64,000 bases of DNA. It comes from a virus. The notes below the pieces were generated by a model. It saw only the letters and a list, made by a program, of their open reading frames with translations. It did no database searches and was not told where the DNA came from. The first letter of the stretch is position 1; each line of letters opens with the position of its first letter. The stretch lies in IMG/VR virus record IMGVR_UViG_3300027864_001020, positions 13,642 through 77,641 of that record, one strand, 5' to 3'. This document shows positions 44,485 to 60,396 of this stretch, in pieces. The translations under genes were made by a program, and so were the position numbers.

Positions 44485-45137
44485 AAAAATTCCCCTCCTG
44501 TAATTTTATGTATTTTGAATTCATAGACCCAAACAAATGGATTTTCTTTCCATGAATAAATGCCGTTTTTTCGCTCACCATTAATGCTGTCCCAAAGAAT
44601 TTCAAATTCTTCTATGTATCGCTTATGATCAACGAGGCATTTCTCGCCGCCATATTTCATATAATGTGGTTTTTTAACTGCGCCTTCAGCAACGCAGTCT
44701 TCAGGGCTTATTTTTTGCAATCTTTCAATGCGGATTTTTTCAACTTTAAGAAATAGTCTTGCCGCTTCTTGTCTCATGTGTATTGACGGTTTCCATTTCC
44801 ATTCTTTGGGATCGTAGTCTTCAAAATCACAGATAAAATTATCAGCAAAATAATGGTATTCAGGTTTTATTCCGGGTTTATTTATGTTACACCACGTTTC
44901 TCTAACCCATAAAATATCGCCAACCTCATAGGGTTTTACTTCTTTGTCTTCGCCTTCTTCGGTTTGTATAATTACTTTTGCATGGTTTCCAAAATACGTT
45001 GGGAAACCTTCCCATGTAACGAAGCGAATACATGGATCGTCTTTATCTGGCTGCGGTCTAATTACTCGCCTTGTCATTGTTTTGCTACCGTTAATAATCG
45101 CCGCTACCATTTTTGGACTAAAAATAATTGGTTTCAT
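44481..45137 (-). CDS. ASCH-like phage protein
   Basis: MKPIIFSPKMVAAIINGSKTMTRRVI...WKPSIHM...NPFVWV. Confidence 0.75.
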   Translation of the reverse strand: MKPIIFSPKMVAAIINGSKTMTRRVIRPQPDKDDPCIRFVTWEGFPTYFGNHAKVIIQTEEGEDKEVKPYEVGDILWVRETWCNINKPGIKPEYHYFADNFICDFEDYDPKEWKWKPSIHMRQEAARLFLKVEKIRIERLQKISPEDCVAEGAVKKPHYMKYGGEKCLVDHKRYIEEFEILWDSINGERKNGIYSWKENPFVWVYEFKIHKITGGEFL

Positions 45138-45982
45138 AATAATTCGCCTCCAAAAAGATCAATGTCAATATTTTTAAGCCATAAGACTTCAATTCGCTCT
45201 TTTTCAGTTACGCTGTCGCAATAAGTATTTTTTTCTTTTACAGTCCAATCTTTATAAAGTTCGTTGTATAACTCGCTATGATAACCGGATAAAATGACAG
45301 AGCCTTTTATCTCATGTAATTTTTTTGCCAACTCTATATGATCCTGCTCTGTCATTTCATAACGATAATCAGTTCCGGCATCTCTTACAGAAAATAAATA
45401 TGGCGGATCTACATAAAACAGAGTTTGATCCGTATCGTGTAAATCAAATATTTCAAGAGCGTTTCTGTTTTCAATAACAACACCTTTCAGGCGGTCTATA
45501 AGAGCGTCTAAGGCTTCAGGATATGAAGCCCACACTTTAGCAGCGGATTTTCCGCAATACCTTGTATTTGCCCTGAAGCCGGTTGCTATTGATCCGTTTT
45601 CTGATATTTTTCCGGTTGCGCCGGTGTTTGCACGTCCCATGAAAGCCCTGATAACTGTCCGCCTTGCCTGTTCAATCGGATTGTCCGCCGGTTTATACGC
45701 CTGTAAATATTCATCTCTTGAAAATGGAGTATTTTCTAACAGTTTCTTTAATTCGGATCCGCTGTCTCTTGTTACCCGAAACAGATTGACTATATCGCTG
45801 TCAATATCGTTGTAAATTTCTTCATGGCATCTTGCTTTACGCAGCAGTATTGCGCCTCCGCCGCCGTATGGTTCGGCATAAACACGATGGCTAGGGATAA
45901 AAGAGATAATCCAAGGGGCGATTGCCCATTTACTGCCGTGATAACGGACAAGCGGACGTGTTATCATTTGATCAATCTCCAA
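45134..45982 (-). CDS. Dam-like (D12 class) N6-adenine methyltransferase
   Basis: YHGSKW, YAEPYGGGG, FYVDPPY. Confidence 0.88.
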   Translation of the reverse strand: MEIDQMITRPLVRYHGSKWAIAPWIISFIPSHRVYAEPYGGGGAILLRKARCHEEIYNDIDSDIVNLFRVTRDSGSELKKLLENTPFSRDEYLQAYKPADNPIEQARRTVIRAFMGRANTGATGKISENGSIATGFRANTRYCGKSAAKVWASYPEALDALIDRLKGVVIENRNALEIFDLHDTDQTLFYVDPPYLFSVRDAGTDYRYEMTEQDHIELAKKLHEIKGSVILSGYHSELYNELYKDWTVKEKNTYCDSVTEKERIEVLWLKNIDIDLFGGELL

Positions 45983-46605
45983 AAAGCATCGTATTGGTTT
46001 TCGGAAATTTTATTACCTGTAAACGGCGGCTTAAACCATATTACGCAGTAATCGATCATGTTTTGTCCTTTTTGTCTATCGCCATTTTTATAGCAATGCG
46101 CTCTTGCGCTGTAGTTATAAACAAAAGAAGGTTTGTAAGTTTGATATATTTTGAATCTGCGTATGCTTGATAAAAAGGAAAGCCTGACAAAAAATATTAC
46201 AGCGACATTCATTTTAAGAGCGTGTAATAAAAACTCTTCTTGAATATTAAACGGCGGATTCGTAAATATGGTTTTACAGCCTTCACATTTATTCGCTACG
46301 AAAAAATCAAATCCGATAATATCTATCTTGTCATCTTTGTAAGGGTATAAATCCGATGATTTTACATCGTAACCATGACTGATTAATGTTTTTGATATAT
46401 CGCCTTGCCCTGCTGCTGGCTCCCATATTGGAGAAGGTATAATCATTTTATCTCTTTTAAGGGCAGATAAAAACCGCTCTATGTCTTTCGGTTCGGTTAC
46501 ATAAAGATCACGCCCCTCGATTTCCGCAAGCCGATATGTCAATCTTTGCATGGAAGTTAAATCTTTTTCTTCAATGATATTTCCAAATAAATCTATATCC
46601 GGCAT
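45964..46605 (-). CDS. Small N6-adenine methyltransferase
   Basis: IWEPAAGQG and TNPPF; start MPDID after GGAGG SD. Confidence 0.8.
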   Translation of the reverse strand: MPDIDLFGNIIEEKDLTSMQRLTYRLAEIEGRDLYVTEPKDIERFLSALKRDKMIIPSPIWEPAAGQGDISKTLISHGYDVKSSDLYPYKDDKIDIIGFDFFVANKCEGCKTIFTNPPFNIQEEFLLHALKMNVAVIFFVRLSFLSSIRRFKIYQTYKPSFVYNYSARAHCYKNGDRQKGQNMIDYCVIWFKPPFTGNKISENQYDAFWRLIK

Positions 46606-48242
46606 AGTGCCTCCTTGATTCTGGTTAAAACAAATATTACGCATGGAAGAGCAAGGCTATTGCCTAACGCTTTATATCTTGCGCTGTCTGATATTTGTTT
46701 GTTGTTATAGCCGTATTCAGTCCAATAGTCCGGGAAACCCTGTAAGCGTTCACATTCAAGCGGTGTCAATCGGCGGACTGCGTAACCATGACGAACTAAA
46801 TCTGAAGCATCTTTTTTGCCGTTACTTTTTAATGTTGAGCCGATTTCCGCCTCTTTATATTCACTATATTTTTGAAATGTGAAAACAGGGTTTATGTAAT
46901 TCAGGCTTTGACCGCCATTTTCTTTTGCTTGTAATGTTGCGCTTAATTCAATATTTAACGCATTGTTTCTACAGTCATAAGCGATAACAGCCTCTTCATT
47001 ATCTGTCATTATCAATGGCGCATTTCTACCGGTTGCATTGCTGTTTGTGTTTAGTGTATTTACAACTTCGCCAACCCTTACTTCGCCGCATTGATTTTGA
47101 TGAACAGAAACAGGCAAGCAGTATAAGCCTGTCTTCGCTCCGGCTCCGCCGCCTTCGGCTTGCAATGTAACGGCTTTATCGGCGTTCATTTGTATTCGAT
47201 CCGCTACACGCCCGAAATCTACTGTATATTGTTCAGAACAGACTAATGGCAAATTACCATGCGCCTCACTTCGCAAGTATGGCGCAATATCTTTGCTCTC
47301 TACGTTGATTCGCTCTCCGCCTTGATCGTCAACAATTATCAATCCGACATTATCACCGTCCGATCTTCCGCCTCTTAATGTTTGCGCTACATCACCTGTA
47401 ATATTTTGATTATATCCGTCAACACCGATAACAGCGTTAGGCGGCATATTCGCCTGTATGCAAGGCGCTCGATCTTCAGCATATTCTATTGTTCCACTTG
47501 CGCTTCTGAATCCGTTAAAACCTGCTGCTTTAACGCATTTTCCAGAATCTTCGGCAACTCCTTCCCTCGGCTCTTCGCTCTCCGTAATATTCCCAAACAC
47601 GCCGTCCGGCTTAAAAAGAATTTCGGCGGCACATTCGCTTGCAAAATCTGCGATAAGAAAGATTCTACGGCGGCGTTGGGGGACTCCCCAGTATTGGGCA
47701 TCCAAGACACGCCATGCAAGCGACCAACCGTCTCCCACAATGGTTCCAGCATATTCCCAAAAAGTGTCTTTGTTTGTGTCTCTTGCCGGAGGTCTAGGTA
47801 TTGAAATATGCCCCCCCCCATTGACCTTTGCGATTTCTTCAATGACGATTCTAAAATCTTCTCCCTTGTTTGAGGAAAATGCTCCGTGTACGTTTTCCCA
47901 TACTGCGAATCTAGGCTTAACTCCATTTGTTGCATAACGCATCTCCTTAATTATTCTTACGGCTTCCATAAACAGACCCGAACGCTCGCCGCTTAATCCT
48001 TCTCTGTTACCTGCAATAGATAAATCCTGACAGGGCGATCCAAAAGTAATTACATCAACAGGCTCTAATTTTTCGCCGCTTAATATTTTAATGTCCCCAA
48101 AATGTTTCATATTCGGGAAGTGTTTTTTTGTAATGCTTATTGGAGCGGCTTCGATCTCGCTTGCCCATAAGGGAGTGATACCGATTTTCTCTGCGGCAAG
48201 TGGGAATCCGCCGATACCGTCAAACAGACTGCCTAATGTCAT
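46593..48242 (-). CDS. C5-cytosine methyltransferase with long variable region
   Basis: SLFDGIGG (I), GSPCQD (IV), ENV (VI), QRRRRIF (VIII), RRLTPLECERLQGFP (IX), RYKALGNS (X). Confidence 0.92.
   Translation of the reverse strand: MTLGSLFDGIGGFPLAAEKIGITPLWASEIEAAPISITKKHFPNMKHFGDIKILSGEKLEPVDVITFGSPCQDLSIAGNREGLSGERSGLFMEAVRIIKEMRYATNGVKPRFAVWENVHGAFSSNKGEDFRIVIEEIAKVNGGGHISIPRPPARDTNKDTFWEYAGTIVGDGWSLAWRVLDAQYWGVPQRRRRIFLIADFASECAAEILFKPDGVFGNITESEEPREGVAEDSGKCVKAAGFNGFRSASGTIEYAEDRAPCIQANMPPNAVIGVDGYNQNITGDVAQTLRGGRSDGDNVGLIIVDDQGGERINVESKDIAPYLRSEAHGNLPLVCSEQYTVDFGRVADRIQMNADKAVTLQAEGGGAGAKTGLYCLPVSVHQNQCGEVRVGEVVNTLNTNSNATGRNAPLIMTDNEEAVIAYDCRNNALNIELSATLQAKENGGQSLNYINPVFTFQKYSEYKEAEIGSTLKSNGKKDASDLVRHGYAVRRLTPLECERLQGFPDYWTEYGYNNKQISDSARYKALGNSLALPCVIFVLTRIKEALCRI
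47486..47935 (-). CDS. Nested out-of-frame ORF resembling the beta subunit of split C5 methyltransferases
   Basis: Own SD (AAGGAG 7 nt before ATG); WMPNTGESPNAAVESFLSQIL...KFFLS...ILRRAKSRGKELP resembles the M.EcoHK31I beta polypeptide as I recall it. Confidence 0.65.
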   Translation of the reverse strand: MQQMELSLDSQYGKTYTEHFPQTREKILESSLKKSQRSMGGGIFQYLDLRQETQTKTLFGNMLEPLWETVGRLHGVSWMPNTGESPNAAVESFLSQILQANVPPKFFLSRTACLGILRRAKSRGKELPKILENALKQQVLTDSEAQVEQ

Positions 48243-49372
48243 GTTGACACCTCATTGAATAAACCCATTTCATCAGAGATACGCTGTTCGGCGATTTTTA
48301 TATATTCAGGATTTAATTCGCATCCGATATATCGCCGAAAGTTTTTTACAGCGACTACCGCCGTTGTGCCGCTGCCAAGAAAAGGATCAAGTACAATTCC
48401 GTTTTCCGGGCATCCGCATAAAATACATGGCAAAATAAGTTTTTGCGGAAATACTGCAAAATGCTCTACTCCTAGTGATTCAGTAGGTACAGTCCACACA
48501 TCTCTTTTATTTCTGTACCCTGTTCCTGCTGTTTTTGAATTTATATTTTCCTCTTTTCTTTTTTGTATACTTGCGCTATGCCATGCGATTTTATCGTCAA
48601 CAATAGATTTACCGCGAAGCAAACCAATATCTTTATTTTCGATTGCTATTTCTCTAATCGCCGTATTATCAAAATAATAATTTTTAGATTTACTAAATAA
48701 AAATAAATACTCATGTGATTTTGTACATCTATCAGTTACACTCTCCGGCATCGGATTCGGTTTATGCCATATTATGTCTTGCCTTAAATAATAGCCGTCT
48801 TCACGCAATGCAAACGCTAACGCCCAGGGTATACCGATTAAATCTTTCGCTTTAATTCCTTTATAAGTTTTTCCCTGCGGTAAATTTGGTTTATTGATTG
48901 TTCCTAAACTCGTTCCCTGTTTACAACCTATAGTAGCATCAGGGTAATGTGCGCCGCCGTTACCGCTTCCGGCGTATGTGTCTCCGATATTTACCCAGAG
49001 AGTACCATCATCTCGTAGCACTCTTTTTACTTCTCTGAAAATGTCGACCAATTTTTGTATATATGCTTCGGGCGTTTCTTCTAACCCTATCTGGCTATCG
49101 TTACGAATTGCGCCGCATTTTCCGCAAATAGTTTTATAAAATGTTGCCGCCCCTATGGTTGACAAGCCCCCTTCCAATCCCCGGCGCGGGCGTTCATCCC
49201 TATTTGAATTATTAACATGATTACATTTAACATCGCCGCCTATCCATTGCGCGGTTTCATAATCACGAAGACCGAAATAAGGCGGAGACGTTACGCAACA
49301 ATGCACATAATTATCCGGCAGCATTTTTAGAGTATCTATATTGTTACCGGCTAATATGTGATCAACTATCAC
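48239..49372 (-). CDS. N4-cytosine/N6-adenine methyltransferase (beta class)
   Basis: VTSPPYF near the N-terminus, VLDPFLGSGTT near the C-terminus. Confidence 0.9.
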   Translation of the reverse strand: MIVDHILAGNNIDTLKMLPDNYVHCCVTSPPYFGLRDYETAQWIGGDVKCNHVNNSNRDERPRRGLEGGLSTIGAATFYKTICGKCGAIRNDSQIGLEETPEAYIQKLVDIFREVKRVLRDDGTLWVNIGDTYAGSGNGGAHYPDATIGCKQGTSLGTINKPNLPQGKTYKGIKAKDLIGIPWALAFALREDGYYLRQDIIWHKPNPMPESVTDRCTKSHEYLFLFSKSKNYYFDNTAIREIAIENKDIGLLRGKSIVDDKIAWHSASIQKRKEENINSKTAGTGYRNKRDVWTVPTESLGVEHFAVFPQKLILPCILCGCPENGIVLDPFLGSGTTAVVAVKNFRRYIGCELNPEYIKIAEQRISDEMGLFNEVST

Positions 49373-53232: not shown

Positions 53233-54033
53233 CTATGTATGTAACAAAGCTCTTGCCAATTTATTAGCTCTTTTAAACTTCCCTCTTAAATGAGGATAAA
53301 CTCTCAAAAAATAATCGTCTCCCTTTTCATGGATTGTCGTGTGTTCATCATGCGTAAGTGATAGCCAATTCCATGCTTTGTCTTCCGCTGCTTTATTGCT
53401 CCCTCTTGTAACGATATGATGCAAAACGATAGCACCGCCTCTTCCGCTTGATTCTGATACTGTATGTTTCTTCCGCCATTGAGCTTCTGTTAATAATTGT
53501 GTACATTCAATATCCGAATAATCAGAAGGGTCAATTTCTAATTCACCTCGCCATTCGTGATAGCCTTGTAACGCATCTATGACAGTGGATTGCTGTTCTG
53601 TTGTAAGTTCGCAGTATTGCGCTAAATGAGAAATCAAATTGTCAATAAAATATGCGGCTTCGGCGGAATTTGCTTCGGAAATATGAACGGGACGCAATTT
53701 CCCGGTAATCTTAGATGGTTTTTTTACAGCGTATTCATCAAGCAGGTCAAGATAAAGCGCATATTTTTCATCTTCGTCCGGCAATCTTCCTTCCAATGAT
53801 TCATGAATCGCAGTAACTAAAACCCATACACTGGAATTCTGTTTGACTGTTCTTTTCTGATAACGCAATTCCATTGTTGTTTGCAAGAAATATTCTTTTT
53901 TATTTCTTTCTTGCCATTCTGTTTTTTTTCTAAAAAGTTCTTCAATAAGATTCTTCCCGCTCTCGTTTACCGCTTTAAGATAGACGTGTCCTTCGTGGTA
54001 TGTTGCGTGAACAGAAAGATTTATTTTTTTCAT
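53233..54033 (-). CDS. NinB/HNHc-type recombination-associated protein
   Basis: KRTVKQNS (NinB-like) and HHIVTRG...LSLTHDEHTTIH; directly after recT. Confidence 0.65.
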   Translation of the reverse strand: MKKINLSVHATYHEGHVYLKAVNESGKNLIEELFRKKTEWQERNKKEYFLQTTMELRYQKRTVKQNSSVWVLVTAIHESLEGRLPDEDEKYALYLDLLDEYAVKKPSKITGKLRPVHISEANSAEAAYFIDNLISHLAQYCELTTEQQSTVIDALQGYHEWRGELEIDPSDYSDIECTQLLTEAQWRKKHTVSESSGRGGAIVLHHIVTRGSNKAAEDKAWNWLSLTHDEHTTIHEKGDDYFLRVYPHLRGKFKRANKLARALLHT

Positions 54034-55064
54034 GCTTTTTCTCTTTCAAACAAGTCTTCAAGCCTCGCCGCTTCGTCATCTTGAAAAGCCGGATTTTTTT
54101 CGGTAGTGGCTGCCGGTTTGCTTGCCGGTTTTTCGGGAGTTGGTTCTTTGCTTTCGGTTTTTGTTTCCGCTTCTTGCTCAACTGTTTCTTCAAAATCTTC
54201 AGCATCGGAAATATTATCATCAGCGTTGTAAGAAACAGCGTCAACATATTGCACGTTTTCATAGTCAATAGGCTTACTGAAATCTCTTATAACGGCTTGA
54301 TCTGCCATATTAGCAGTTTGCATTGTTACAGATAAAATTCCCCATTTTGAAATAAGATTTTTTAACGGTGTTTTCGCATACATCGAGTGCGGATCTTTCT
54401 GCCACAAGCTATTAGGATTCTTGAATGATTTTGAGAACCTTTTACCATGCGCTTGCAACCTGCTCATTGACCAATATTCGATTCGCTCAAACCCATTTAA
54501 CAGGCGGAAATATGCGGCATATCCAATTATTTTGTCGAGATTTTCCCGCTCTCTATATCCGTTTGCTACAGGGTGTATTTTAACCTCACCGGTTATAATG
54601 TCGTATGATTCAAATTCGTCTTCATAAACCGGCGTAACATTTATTGTTTTATATTGCCCTGTACGTAGCGCAAGCTGAATAAAACCCTTATACATGATCT
54701 GGAATTGAGCAAGAGATACCCATGTTTCTTCTGTTACCTCTTTGCCGTCTTTCATAACCTTCTTTTTAATTTTAGTATTGTAAGGAACTATCGCAGCAAA
54801 ACCTAAATTTGAATCAATAGGCAGATCAAGGGTTGCCGCTACCATTGCCGATGACAATATTGATTTTTGATCGCATTTAGACAATTCAGGGTTTTTCTGC
54901 GTAGCGTTTAACACTGACGCAAGGAAGGAAGGGGCTTTTTCTCCCATAACTTCCATAAACCTGTTTTTAACATAATCAGAGTTGATTAAATCTTTTAAAC
55001 TCTGAACCGGCGAACGTTCTAAGGCTCCGCCTTTTTCGTTTTGATCACTTCCGTCTGTTTTCAT
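54030..55064 (-). CDS. recT: RecT-family single-strand annealing protein
   Basis: SAMVAATLDLPIDSNLGFAAIVPY...AQFQIMYKGFIQLALRTGQY...MYAKT. Confidence 0.92.
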   Translation of the reverse strand: MKTDGSDQNEKGGALERSPVQSLKDLINSDYVKNRFMEVMGEKAPSFLASVLNATQKNPELSKCDQKSILSSAMVAATLDLPIDSNLGFAAIVPYNTKIKKKVMKDGKEVTEETWVSLAQFQIMYKGFIQLALRTGQYKTINVTPVYEDEFESYDIITGEVKIHPVANGYRERENLDKIIGYAAYFRLLNGFERIEYWSMSRLQAHGKRFSKSFKNPNSLWQKDPHSMYAKTPLKNLISKWGILSVTMQTANMADQAVIRDFSKPIDYENVQYVDAVSYNADDNISDAEDFEETVEQEAETKTESKEPTPEKPASKPAATTEKNPAFQDDEAARLEDLFEREKA

Positions 55065-55083
55065 AATATCCTCCTAAAATAAT

Positions 55084-55173
55084 TTGCCTTGCCTTGCAAA
55101 ACAGCGCCAAACATGGCATCACTACGCATTGCTGCTCTTCGCAATACATTACAACGCAACGCAACGCGCCACA
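55084..55173 (-). repeat. Pentamer array 2: 18 x (NGY-NN)
   Basis: tgtgg cgcgt tgcgt tgcgt tgtaa tgtat tgcga agagc agcaa tgcgt agtga tgcca tgttt ggcgc tgttt tgcaa ggcaa ggcaa; 17/18 fit NGY. Confidence 0.9.
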
Positions 55174-55195
55174 TTGATTTTTTATCTTTATTCCC

Positions 55196-55290
55196 TTGCC
55201 TTGCTAAACTTCGCATCACAACGCCAGAACTCGCAATACCTAACAACGCTGTACACCGCTTTGCTCCACAGTACAATACACAACATTGCA
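55196..55290 (-). repeat. Pentamer array 1: 19 x (NGY-NN)
   Basis: tgcaa tgttg tgtat tgtac tgtgg agcaa agcgg tgtac agcgt tgtta ggtat tgcga gttct ggcgt tgtga tgcga agttt agcaa ggcaa; 18/19 fit NGY. Confidence 0.9.
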
Positions 55291-55293
55291 ACA

Positions 55294-55860
55294 TTATTTT
55301 TCCTCTTCCCATTTTGTAACAATAAATCTGCCAAACGGACCCTTTCTTGCAGGGCGAAAATCACCTAACCCGACTTTTGATCCTGCGTCATCTACCAAGA
55401 GGCGGACAAATTTCGGATTAAACATCGCTTCGTCAACGGCAAGCGTGAAATCTGTTTGCCAAACATCTAATCGCGGTCTATGGCACATAATCCGACCGCC
55501 GGTTGACGGAATAACAACGCTTCGGCTGTCAACTTCAAATTCTTTTGTGTTTAACGGACAGACAATTTCTTCGATAGTTATTCCGGCAGGAATCAAACTT
55601 GATTTTTGTGTAGTTACTTTAGTTTTTCCTACTTTATGGAAAGAGCCAGCCGCAATTAAACAGGCAAATATATTCGGTCCCGGTATATAAAGATTTCCTT
55701 CTCCATCGCTGTATGTTTTTGGCAGTGCTTGATCTCGCGGTGTACCTTTATTACCAACCGAAACAGACGATGTTCCCGAAGATACTTTGATCTCGTTCGC
55801 TTCAGTAAAACGATTCATAATTAAAGGCGTTTTACCCTGTATTGAAACTTTTATTTTCAT
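55294..55860 (-). CDS. RAMP/Cas7-like protein
   Basis: N-terminal KVSIQGKTPLIM strand, central YIPGPNI, C-terminal Gly-rich loop GSKVGLGDFRPARKGPFGRF; likely start at 55860. Confidence 0.65.
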   Translation of the reverse strand: MKIKVSIQGKTPLIMNRFTEANEIKVSSGTSSVSVGNKGTPRDQALPKTYSDGEGNLYIPGPNIFACLIAAGSFHKVGKTKVTTQKSSLIPAGITIEEIVCPLNTKEFEVDSRSVVIPSTGGRIMCHRPRLDVWQTDFTLAVDEAMFNPKFVRLLVDDAGSKVGLGDFRPARKGPFGRFIVTKWEEEK

Positions 55861-56471
55861 TTTTTGTTCCTTGATTTTAACCACAAGACTTCATATAACC
55901 GCCTTGTGGCTTTAATATCTGACATTGCGCCGTGCGCATCTGCGTGTTCAATGCCGAGCGCTTTTGTCATTGTTTCGAGTTTTTGATTTTTCGTTTTAAT
56001 TTTTAACTGTGGCGCAAGCTGTTTTACTACATCAAAAACATCTATCAACCTTCCGCTAAAAAAGAAATTCATATCAATACCGCATCTGTCAAAAAGTGCT
56101 TTGACATGACCATAATCAAAACCGCAATTATAACCTGCGAAAACGAATTTATTGTCAGCGTCAGCATGATCATTCATACCGTTATACGACCATTGGATTA
56201 ACCAATCGGCAATTTCTTTCATAACAATTTCTGCCGATGGGTACGATCTTATTGTTTCCTCTGACACGCCATGAACTTTATACGCGCCTTCGTGAAACAG
56301 TATTTGATCATTCAATGGGTTTAAGTGAAATTCCTTTTCGCCTACAAGAACATGAGACATTTTTCCGTCAATTTCTTTATCCTGATATACCAATATTGCT
56401 ATTTCAAAAGCTGCGGAGTTAGTCGGATCAATGCCGGTTGTTTCAACATCACACCATACTACTGTCATCAT
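55857..56471 (-). CDS. DnaQ/DEDDh 3'-5' exonuclease
   Basis: WCDVETTG, AGYNCGFD, HGAMSDI. Confidence 0.88.
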   Translation of the reverse strand: MMTVVWCDVETTGIDPTNSAAFEIAILVYQDKEIDGKMSHVLVGEKEFHLNPLNDQILFHEGAYKVHGVSEETIRSYPSAEIVMKEIADWLIQWSYNGMNDHADADNKFVFAGYNCGFDYGHVKALFDRCGIDMNFFFSGRLIDVFDVVKQLAPQLKIKTKNQKLETMTKALGIEHADAHGAMSDIKATRRLYEVLWLKSRNKK

Positions 56472-56968: not shown

Positions 56969-58233
56969 TTTGTTACAACCTCGCCTTCTTTTATGTAAAT
57001 GATTTGATCTTCCAACTCTTCGGGGAGTTCTGCGACTTTAAGCAAGATTACCAAAAAGCCGGAAGTTTCCGCCCATTTTGAAATTGCGCCGGTTGTATTT
57101 GCGTCTAACGATTCCCCGTTGTCCACGACTAATATTTTCAATTCGCCGGAGAAACGTGCGCCGAGCATGAAAAACACCTGTACGCTTTCAGCGGTTGACC
57201 AGTTGCCTTCATCGTTTGTATCTGTCACGCCTCGCAGTGCGCCCTTATAATAAAGAGCGTTGTCTTCGCCGATTTCCAAGTCTTTAACGCCAAGATTCAT
57301 TTCCGCAAGTGTTGTTTTTCGCTTTGTACGGAGTGTTTCAATTTCTTCAGTGAGTTTGTCGTACTGTTCAGTTAATTTGTCATGCTCCGCTTTTTTATTC
57401 AGGTAGTCATCATAGGCTTTCGCAGCGGTTTCAAGTTTTAACCATTCTGACAATTCATTGTTAAATGCGTCTACATCGCCCTGCGTGTATTGTTTCTGTT
57501 CTGCGATTGATTTTTCTGCCGATTCAACGGTTTTTTCCAAAATTGGAATAAGCGCATGAATATCATCAACAGAATTAAACCTGCATTTCGCCCGGATAAT
57601 TTCTTCGGCTTTGTCGAGCGTTGACCGAAGCCATTTAACATAACCTGCTGCTTCGTCTCTTCTTGCGGTGAGTTCGTCTGCCGGTTTGGGGTGCTGCGCT
57701 TCGTCAACAGGCTTTATTTCGCCCATTTTCTTTTTATCCCTGCCGATTTCTGTACGGAGCTGCTCTTTTGATTTTGTTTCATCGTCAATTTCTTTGATTT
57801 TTTCAGAGATACCACAGCGTTGTTTTAATAATTCAATGATTTTTGTGTCAGTCATTTTCCGCATCGCCCATGGGAACTCTAAACCGCTGCTGATGGAATT
57901 AAGAAATTCCCTTACACCGCCGGAAACATTTACATACCGGCTTGTAGTTTCGTCAAGACGCTGTACCGTCTGCTTTACGGAATCAGACAATACAGTCCTG
58001 ATTTTTAATCCGTCATCGGTATAGCCGATAATTTCTGCGGATTTTTCGCCATGACTTATCATGCCGGGCGTGTACGCTTTTGTACCGTTCATTGTCAGAG
58101 ATATACTCTGCGCTAATGATGTTTTTCCGCTCTTGTTTACTCCCTGAATTACCTGTAATCCGGGACCGTGAAAATCAATTATTGCTTGTTTTATTTTGCG
58201 AACATTTTTGATTTCTAGCCGTTTTAATAACAT
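56965..58233 (-). CDS. AAA/SMC-like coiled-coil ATPase
   Basis: LEIKNVRKI...IQGVNKSGKTS Walker A; coiled coil; STAESV signature-like; LVVDNGE Walker B. Confidence 0.82.
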   Translation of the reverse strand: MLLKRLEIKNVRKIKQAIIDFHGPGLQVIQGVNKSGKTSLAQSISLTMNGTKAYTPGMISHGEKSAEIIGYTDDGLKIRTVLSDSVKQTVQRLDETTSRYVNVSGGVREFLNSISSGLEFPWAMRKMTDTKIIELLKQRCGISEKIKEIDDETKSKEQLRTEIGRDKKKMGEIKPVDEAQHPKPADELTARRDEAAGYVKWLRSTLDKAEEIIRAKCRFNSVDDIHALIPILEKTVESAEKSIAEQKQYTQGDVDAFNNELSEWLKLETAAKAYDDYLNKKAEHDKLTEQYDKLTEEIETLRTKRKTTLAEMNLGVKDLEIGEDNALYYKGALRGVTDTNDEGNWSTAESVQVFFMLGARFSGELKILVVDNGESLDANTTGAISKWAETSGFLVILLKVAELPEELEDQIIYIKEGEVVTK

Positions 58234-59358: not shown

Positions 59359-60396
59359 TTACACCACCTTCTTTGCGGTTACGGTTAATCTGTCTGAAGG
59401 GGTAACTTTGGAATATTGATCATACAGACCGGCATCTTTCAGGGCATCACTGTCAACACTACGTCTGTCAAAAAAAGACCATGATACTGAATATTGATCG
59501 CCGGAAGCGGAAAGTTTACGCTCTGTTTTACTTGGCTTCGCTCTTGCTATTAAACTTGATTTAAGCTCGATTTTAACGGCTTTGTCTTCTTTTTCAAGCG
59601 GCGCAATTTGCTCTTTCAAATGACAGATTTTTCTGCACATATTTAATTCATTGGCTGTGAGCGTTAATGGCGCAGCGCAGCCTTCGTACATTCCTGTTAT
59701 CATGTCATCTTCGGCAGGGATGCCGACCGCAGGGGGACGGTTTTCGGGGATTACGTTTTCGTTCCAAAACTTTGTTTCAACGGTCAGCATTTTTACAATA
59801 AATTGATCATTGCGGAAAATTACATAATCTTTGATTTCTTCGGTATCAAGGAAACAGGCGGAAATAACAAACCATTTTAAACCTAAAACGTACATATAAT
59901 GTTGTACTTGCGCAAAATACGAATCGGGAATTTCATCTTCGTTAAAATCATAACCATACTTTGATGATTTGATTTCAAGTCCACCAAAACCGGCAATTTC
60001 TTTATCGTTGATGATAACAGGATTTTCCGCATATATTATGCCGTCTACGTTAGCCGACATATAATCGAAATCGGGTGAGTAGAACATATAAGGAACTGTA
60101 AATATTTTCAGTTCGGGATGCGCTTCGGCAAACCAATTTCTTATAACAGGCTCCAAGAGTTTACCTCTCTTCGCCGCCGGACTCATATCAGCAGATTTGT
60201 CTTTGCCTTTTTTCTGCCAATAAATAGTATTAGGGCTGCCGTATTCGCCGTTTAAGAGCATGAGGCTTCCGGCATCCGAACCGCCGATACTGTTTCGGCG
60301 CAATATTAACCAGTCTTCATAAGTCATTGTGTCTGTCTGTATTGTTTTACAGCGATCAAACAATGGCTGTAATTGCTCATTCATAATTTCCTCCAA
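59359..60396 (-). CDS. YqaJ-like viral recombinase/exonuclease
   Basis: WLILRRNSIGGSD...RGKLLEP...SANVDG...LEIK...YFAQVQHY. Confidence 0.9.
   Translation of the reverse strand: MEEIMNEQLQPLFDRCKTIQTDTMTYEDWLILRRNSIGGSDAGSLMLLNGEYGSPNTIYWQKKGKDKSADMSPAAKRGKLLEPVIRNWFAEAHPELKIFTVPYMFYSPDFDYMSANVDGIIYAENPVIINDKEIAGFGGLEIKSSKYGYDFNEDEIPDSYFAQVQHYMYVLGLKWFVISACFLDTEEIKDYVIFRNDQFIVKMLTVETKFWNENVIPENRPPAVGIPAEDDMITGMYEGCAAPLTLTANELNMCRKICHLKEQIAPLEKEDKAVKIELKSSLIARAKPSKTERKLSASGDQYSVSWSFFDRRSVDSDALKDAGLYDQYSKVTPSDRLTVTAKKVV

Follow-up and report, generated by a model that had tools for sequence, protein, structure and literature searches.

Positions 55084-55290 show the strongest 5-nt periodicity within the window, that is, the whole 64,000-nt stretch of viral DNA analyzed here, and the question that this locus raises is what a run of fixed triplets alternating with variable dinucleotides encodes, and how it is read. 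Our answer is that the locus almost certainly belongs to the VIPR systems, gene silencers of phages that are related to CRISPR and whose first descriptions, dating from April 2026, included structures and functional assays (10.64898/2026.04.26.720920, 10.64898/2026.04.26.720927), and that it very probably works by the published code.

Array anatomy and genomic setting

Read on the minus strand, the region resolves into two arrays of NGY-NN pentamers, with 19 units in array 1 (vrRNA 1; 55290 to 55196) and 18 in array 2 (vrRNA 2; 55173 to 55084), separated by an A-rich spacer of 22 nt (55174..55195). The first-pass annotation had listed both NN series exactly as they stand. Scaffold position 2 is G and position 3 a pyrimidine, each in 36/37 units, and position 1 is T21/A8/G7/C1, i.e., mostly TGY, with no correlation between this first base and the GC content of the locus (rho -0.07). 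The best 18-unit run fits the scaffold at 17/18, against 9/18 at most elsewhere in the window. The NN pairs, whose invariance among related phages had been raised as a possible objection to guides, vary freely: 155 arrays from relatives use all 16 dinucleotides (each 3.6-11%) on a fixed scaffold.

The 3' ends of the arrays should be considered separately. AA predominates at the last three positions across the 155 arrays of relatives, and we therefore treat the last three to four units (TT, then AA) as a tail; in one relative's guide, the TT unit is the sole mismatch in an otherwise perfect target. These terminal units, judged from such alignments, probably do not read the target, and the earlier decoding of them as codons should be dropped. 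On the minus strand, vrRNA 1 thus divides into a guide part of 16 NGY-NN units (55211..55290), with an inferred tail boundary, and the conserved units TT, AA, AA (55196..55210), whereas vrRNA 2 has a guide part of 14 units (55104..55173) and its conserved 3' units at 55084..55103, beyond which come an A/T tract and the ribosome-binding site of recT. A separate pseudoknot tail was not seen; the 3' end of the array continues as pentamers (TT, AA, AA).

Leaving out the tail also matters for base composition. The first-pass annotation had counted a purine at the first NN base in 30/37 units, and the count is correct (p 1e-4 vs 0.5), but it includes the conserved tail; in the guide proper the figure is 25/30 (p 1.6e-4 vs 0.5, and p 0.003 vs the strand's own 58% purine). 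Such a count agrees with what the first codon position shows in this phage (68% purine), and the second NN base is unbiased (15/30 purine in the guide proper). When six codon-register models are compared, sense codon positions 1-2 fit best for both arrays (+4.2 and +5.5 bits), and the same register is the best one in 73/155 arrays of relatives. An Rfam search gave no match, and a promoter scan remained at chance (3 seen, 2.9 expected).

The window is part of an 88-kb IMG/VR provirus (74% complete) in which genes for terminase, major head, and tail sheath were recognized; Logan run SRR6219166 contains the locus too. Where close relatives of its capsid and ATPase are named, they come from Treponema or Spirochaetia, which makes a treponeme the probable host; a termite-gut origin is suggested by the names of the relatives' records. 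The arrays lie 3' of a 188-aa vipr gene (55294..55860, minus strand) and 5' of recT (54030..55064, minus strand; Pfam RecT, 6e-40), and a DEDD exonuclease gene (55857..56471, minus strand; Pfam RNase_T) lies immediately upstream of vipr, with YqaJ among the further neighbors. The cassette of vipr and two vrRNAs therefore occupies approximately 800 bp of the early operon, between exonuclease and recT. Three sister phages have the exonuclease gene directly next to recT, without an intervening vipr, from which it follows that insertion of the cassette is optional and that the exonuclease is a member of the phage recombination module, with no accessory role in VIPR. No vap gene is evident in the cassette.

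Several other features of this provirus were recorded along the way. A solo third NGY-NN array of 12 units with a TT/AA ending (G000:C1:78138-78197, minus strand; window-equivalent 64497-64556) is intergenic, approximately 500 bp past the end of the window and 9 kb upstream of vipr, and is probably an additional vrRNA. The early operon also holds an apparent cluster of DNA methyltransferase genes (45134-49372, minus strand), called by eye from motifs, and an out-of-frame ORF of 149 aa (47486-47935) is nested in the cytosine-type methyltransferase gene of that cluster.

The Vipr protein and the published systems

The identification of the 188-aa protein as a RAMP/Cas7-like effector is based on homology, fold, and residue alignment. 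It matches the Vipr of Escherichia phage SUSP1 (PDB 36PP chain D) with a phmmer E-value of 4.5e-9, at approximately 27% identity to the SUSP1-family protein. Its AlphaFold model (pLDDT 85.7) has as top Foldseek matches the Cas7/Csm3 subunits of type III and VII CRISPR complexes (E ~1e-6). In the comparison with Felixounavirus Vipr, R138/D177/W178/R179/G87 align with R123/D167/F168/R169/G78, and these include the thumb Arg and the G-loop Asp-aromatic-Arg of the SUSP1 family; R138, D177, W178, and R179 are reported to hold the guide triplet (10.64898/2026.04.26.720927). SUSP1 His17, the reader of the first G, aligns with Asn16 here, a change that may relax the first scaffold base.

The homologue family contains 1561 proteins, and arrays are found at 62/65 loci with Vipr homologues (some of the loci are duplicates). 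Homologues in different phyla have this pentamer scaffold beside them, on one side of the gene or the other, with NN that are unrelated. Among approximately 20 treponeme-phage loci without vipr, an array is present in only one.

In the published systems, vrRNAs alternate GGY with NN, and the rule by which they read double-stranded DNA is a 1-nt skip; what is passed over is mostly the wobble position, by which, according to the authors, synonymous escape is blocked (10.64898/2026.04.26.720920). The structures account for the gap (10.64898/2026.04.26.720927). Satellite silencing, solo guides, anti-vipr guides, and a lower self-match have been described as well (10.64898/2026.10.15.759431), and so have relaxed scaffolds, namely YNNNG (10.64898/2026.04.26.720920, methods) and WGT/NN and TGH/NN (10.64898/2026.10.21.760802). 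The wobble-skipping code, non-GGY scaffolds, anti-vipr guides, and self-avoidance are, therefore, already published.

With VIPR type II, as found in SUSP1 and a Pseudomonas fulva prophage, the locus shares a small (~20 kDa) RAMP protein, adjacent pentamer arrays of a fixed triplet and variable NN, a phage or provirus location, and the 1-nt skip with wobble alignment, the last being shown for relatives in this clade. In the clade, too, guides are aimed at other vipr genes, at related phages, and at what look like satellites, self is matched less well, and solo guides occur at a distance from the gene. The differences are a scaffold of NGY rather than the GGY of SUSP1, arrays of 18-19 units rather than the typical 9-16, a pentameric 3' end in place of the pseudoknot tail, no vap gene, and a host that is probably a spirochaete. 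The type II features of a vap gene beside vipr, strict GGY, and a structured 3' tail are absent from the window cassette, which is not type II by architecture. It resembles the non-canonical arrays (YNNNG, WGT/NN, and TGH/NN) in that several bases are tolerated at the first scaffold position, the second G is retained, and a Vipr-fold protein is the neighbor, and it shows no clear difference from them; the NGY-NN pattern of its 37 units corresponds to the published YNNNG variant. Class 1 CRISPR Cas7/Csm3 proteins (types III and VII) have the same RRM/RAMP fold, thumb, and glycine-rich loop, but here there is a single gene and pairing is gapped and not contiguous; a CRISPR-like repeat family is absent at 50-60 kb, the window has no tandem repeat-spacer array, and the neighbors of vipr are RecT, exonuclease, and YqaJ rather than additional cas genes.

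The code is of interest because it makes for a DNA binder that is compact, programmable, independent of a PAM, and robust to synonymous escape; in this form it was published in April 2026. What the locus contributes is an example, probably from a spirochaete phage, in which the scaffold is relaxed and an accessory gene is lacking, together with computational evidence for the 1-nt skip rule in a clade approximately 27% identical to the tested protein. It is useful for classifying VIPR diversity or for picking a minimal tool; it does not add a new principle.

Targets of the two window guides

Neither window guide has a self-target in the 88-kb record (74% complete) at skips of 0-2, with best scores (at skip 1) of 22/34 for array 1 and 20/30 for array 2, which agrees with the earlier failure to see a match within the window. 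For array 1, three 16-base seeds gave 24, 29, and 19 matches in viral contigs, with best extensions of 24/34, 25/34, and 23/32 (none reaching 80%), a 20-base seed gave 0 matches in metagenomes, and 12- and 11-unit patterns with ≤3 mismatches gave 0 and 0 in 218 genomes of one Treponematales family. For array 2, the seed search returned 62 matches in viral contigs (best 24/30) and 36 in metagenomes (best 24/28, none in a recognizable termite element), and the 218 family genomes yielded 4 matches vs 3 for controls (best 22/28). Against sister-phage loci, both arrays remain at chance level. The solo array has 3 viral matches, of which two contain a stop codon in the frame being read; this is chance level for a 20-base guide, and no target emerged for it.

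The degenerate peptides of both arrays, when compared with the phage's own proteins, likewise gave matches within or near the range of shuffles. Array 2 was also considered as the N-terminus of a tape-measure protein, but 35 relatives of the putative tape-measure protein do not support this. As no targets were found, the decoded peptides should be regarded as unverified.

One might conclude that this is a VIPR system with both guides obsolete or decayed, or aimed at non-coding or antisense sites, so that the decoded peptides are meaningless. The blank searches for both guides fit such an explanation, as does the fact that published VIPR guides match both strands and non-coding REP elements (10.64898/2026.04.26.720920, 10.64898/2026.10.15.759431). 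The scaffold is, however, intact at the two positions that are conserved in 36/37 units, and the sense codon 1-2 register is the best of the six for both arrays. The searches required long exact seeds or ≤3 mismatches, and a sister ATPase gene occurs in only 2/121 Treponematales genomes, that is, termite-gut prophages are poorly sampled and the relevant ones are rarely present in the genome set; blank results of this kind do not, therefore, show absence. On balance, we consider obsolete or non-coding guides unlikely.

The one-nucleotide skip in guides of relatives

Guides of relatives provide a test of the skip rule in this clade. A Mesorhizobium guide (L101), whose Vipr is ~70% identical, matches 26/26 bases over 13 consecutive units in 1/201 genomes, with only the terminal TT unit mismatched; the reversed-pattern control gave 0 matches in the 201 genomes, and skips 0 and 2 gave 0 matches in controls on two genomes only. 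The target consists of codons 5-17 of a tape-measure gene, on the sense strand with the wobble position skipped. It is located in a small element (L186:12554-19441; G049:C53) with tape-measure, terminase-small/excisionase-like HTH, and DUF3102 genes, and no capsid gene was identified among the ten neighbors scanned. Because of the HTH gene and the lack of an identified capsid gene, the element resembles published satellite targets, and it may be an undescribed Mesorhizobium satellite.

In an all-against-all comparison of 137 guides over 1 Mb, perfect 10-unit matches occur only at skip 1; one of these is the Mesorhizobium site itself, and hence circular, and the other is independent, being the guide of a sister phage (L096) on another vipr gene. 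This guide scores 24/24 on the L099 vipr, 21/24 on the window vipr (55495..55530, minus strand; in frame, at the thumb motif), and 18/24 on its own vipr, which ranks near the bottom among ~65 vipr loci. The three mismatches in the window vipr correspond to Arg and Ser codon-family switches. Four more 5' units of the L096:1656-1760 guide fit the window vipr provided that one target codon is left out as a loop, a pattern suggestive of a one-unit bulge.

In 536 kb of treponeme-phage DNA, 4/8 sister guides match at skip 1, sense and in frame, with scores of 22/22 on the ATPase Walker A motif, 27/30 on the exonuclease, 32/38 on YqaJ, and 21/24 on vipr, against shuffled maxima of 18, 23, 27, and 18, respectively, and with no excess at skips 0 and 2. 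The Walker A score should be read with care, as the guide is an 11-unit piece of a 30-unit array picked after a match was seen and the perfect target was fetched following a peptide match. The homologous sites in the window are at 58117-58149 (Walker A), 55875-55919 (exonuclease), 59668-59724 (YqaJ), and 55495-55530 (vipr). The other four sister guides have no target in the 536 kb, and two proxy guides have none in 251 Desulfovibrionaceae and 201 Mesorhizobium genomes (hosts assumed). The gapped comparison with shuffles that the first-pass annotation had proposed separates four of the eight sister guides from background, at skip 1 alone, and leaves the two window guides at chance level.

Could the clade use another skip length or register, given its NGY scaffold and altered first-G residue? 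Position 1 is T in 21/37 units and Asn16 stands in the place of SUSP1 His17, but every match with a high score in the clade falls at skip 1, and nothing at skips 0 and 2 rises above the shuffles or reaches 100%, so that for the sister guides this explanation is refuted, and for the clade it is very improbable. That the repeats and purine bias come from a small ORF (an 83-aa open frame, 55061-55312, minus strand, most likely a shadow ORF, covers both arrays, and a gene caller reports 77 aa in L006) or from a hairpin, for which array 2 gives a folding z of -2.2, or a degenerate microsatellite is scarcely credible, since the period is 5 and not 3, the scaffold with unrelated NN recurs beside homologues in several phyla, and the perfect gapped targets of relatives' NN strings refute it.

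The preferred reading remains a VIPR system using the published code. The original proposal, that in-frame guides skip the wobble base and so resist synonymous escape, is the published mechanism, as the VIPR papers describe the same 1-nt skip code, and guides of the same clade bear it out. Two vrRNAs would be transcribed from the minus strand and then processed. Each pentamer would be held by one Vipr subunit, with the NGY triplet buried and NN presented, as published for SUSP1 and as the conserved residues suggest here, and the subunits on a vrRNA would form a filament. Successive NN pairs would read the double-stranded DNA target as two bases read and one skipped, the bases read being most likely codon positions 1-2 of the sense strand, as sister guides show and as the composition of the window's own guides supports. 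The effect of binding would be transcriptional silencing of one gene in an element that competes within the same host, whether phage, prophage, or satellite, as in published systems; here, a related treponeme phage or satellite would be the most likely element. Escape would be possible only via amino-acid changes or Ser/Arg/Leu codon-family switches, and wobble changes would provide none.

One joint reading, possible though doubtful, would see the termite-gut treponeme phages as a mutual VIPR-targeting network directed against conserved motifs of the recombination module (Walker A, exonuclease motif III, YqaJ, and the vipr thumb). They would use a VIPR clade that lacks vap, in which the His17->Asn change leaves the first scaffold base free and the pseudoknot tail gives way to TT/AA pentamers at the end of the array, with switching between six-fold Ser/Arg codon families as a systematic route of both self-avoidance and escape. 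If so, one would expect a measurable codon-usage scar at the targeted motifs.

Some unusual arrays among the relatives should also be kept in mind. The 30-unit array that contains the Walker A guide (L001:3559-3708) matches relatives' ATPase Walker A with its 3' 11 units (22/22 in L255) and its own ATPase gene at 18/22, partly via a Ser codon-family switch; its 5' half may be a second guide. A GGC-NN array of low complexity, located in the early region of a treponeme phage (L249:2086-2170) on an 8-kb contig where no vipr was called, is a possible solo or decoy guide. Upstream of another vipr homologue (L005:347-2156), vrRNA units, 14 or more in tandem and all with the same tail and spacer, resemble a guide library of the CRISPR-array kind. 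Unbroken arrays of 45-60 pentamers, far over the published 9-16, are present at L110:2762-2986, L110:3596-3895, L149:1479-1748, and L141:3573-3812, and probably hold several guides per run.
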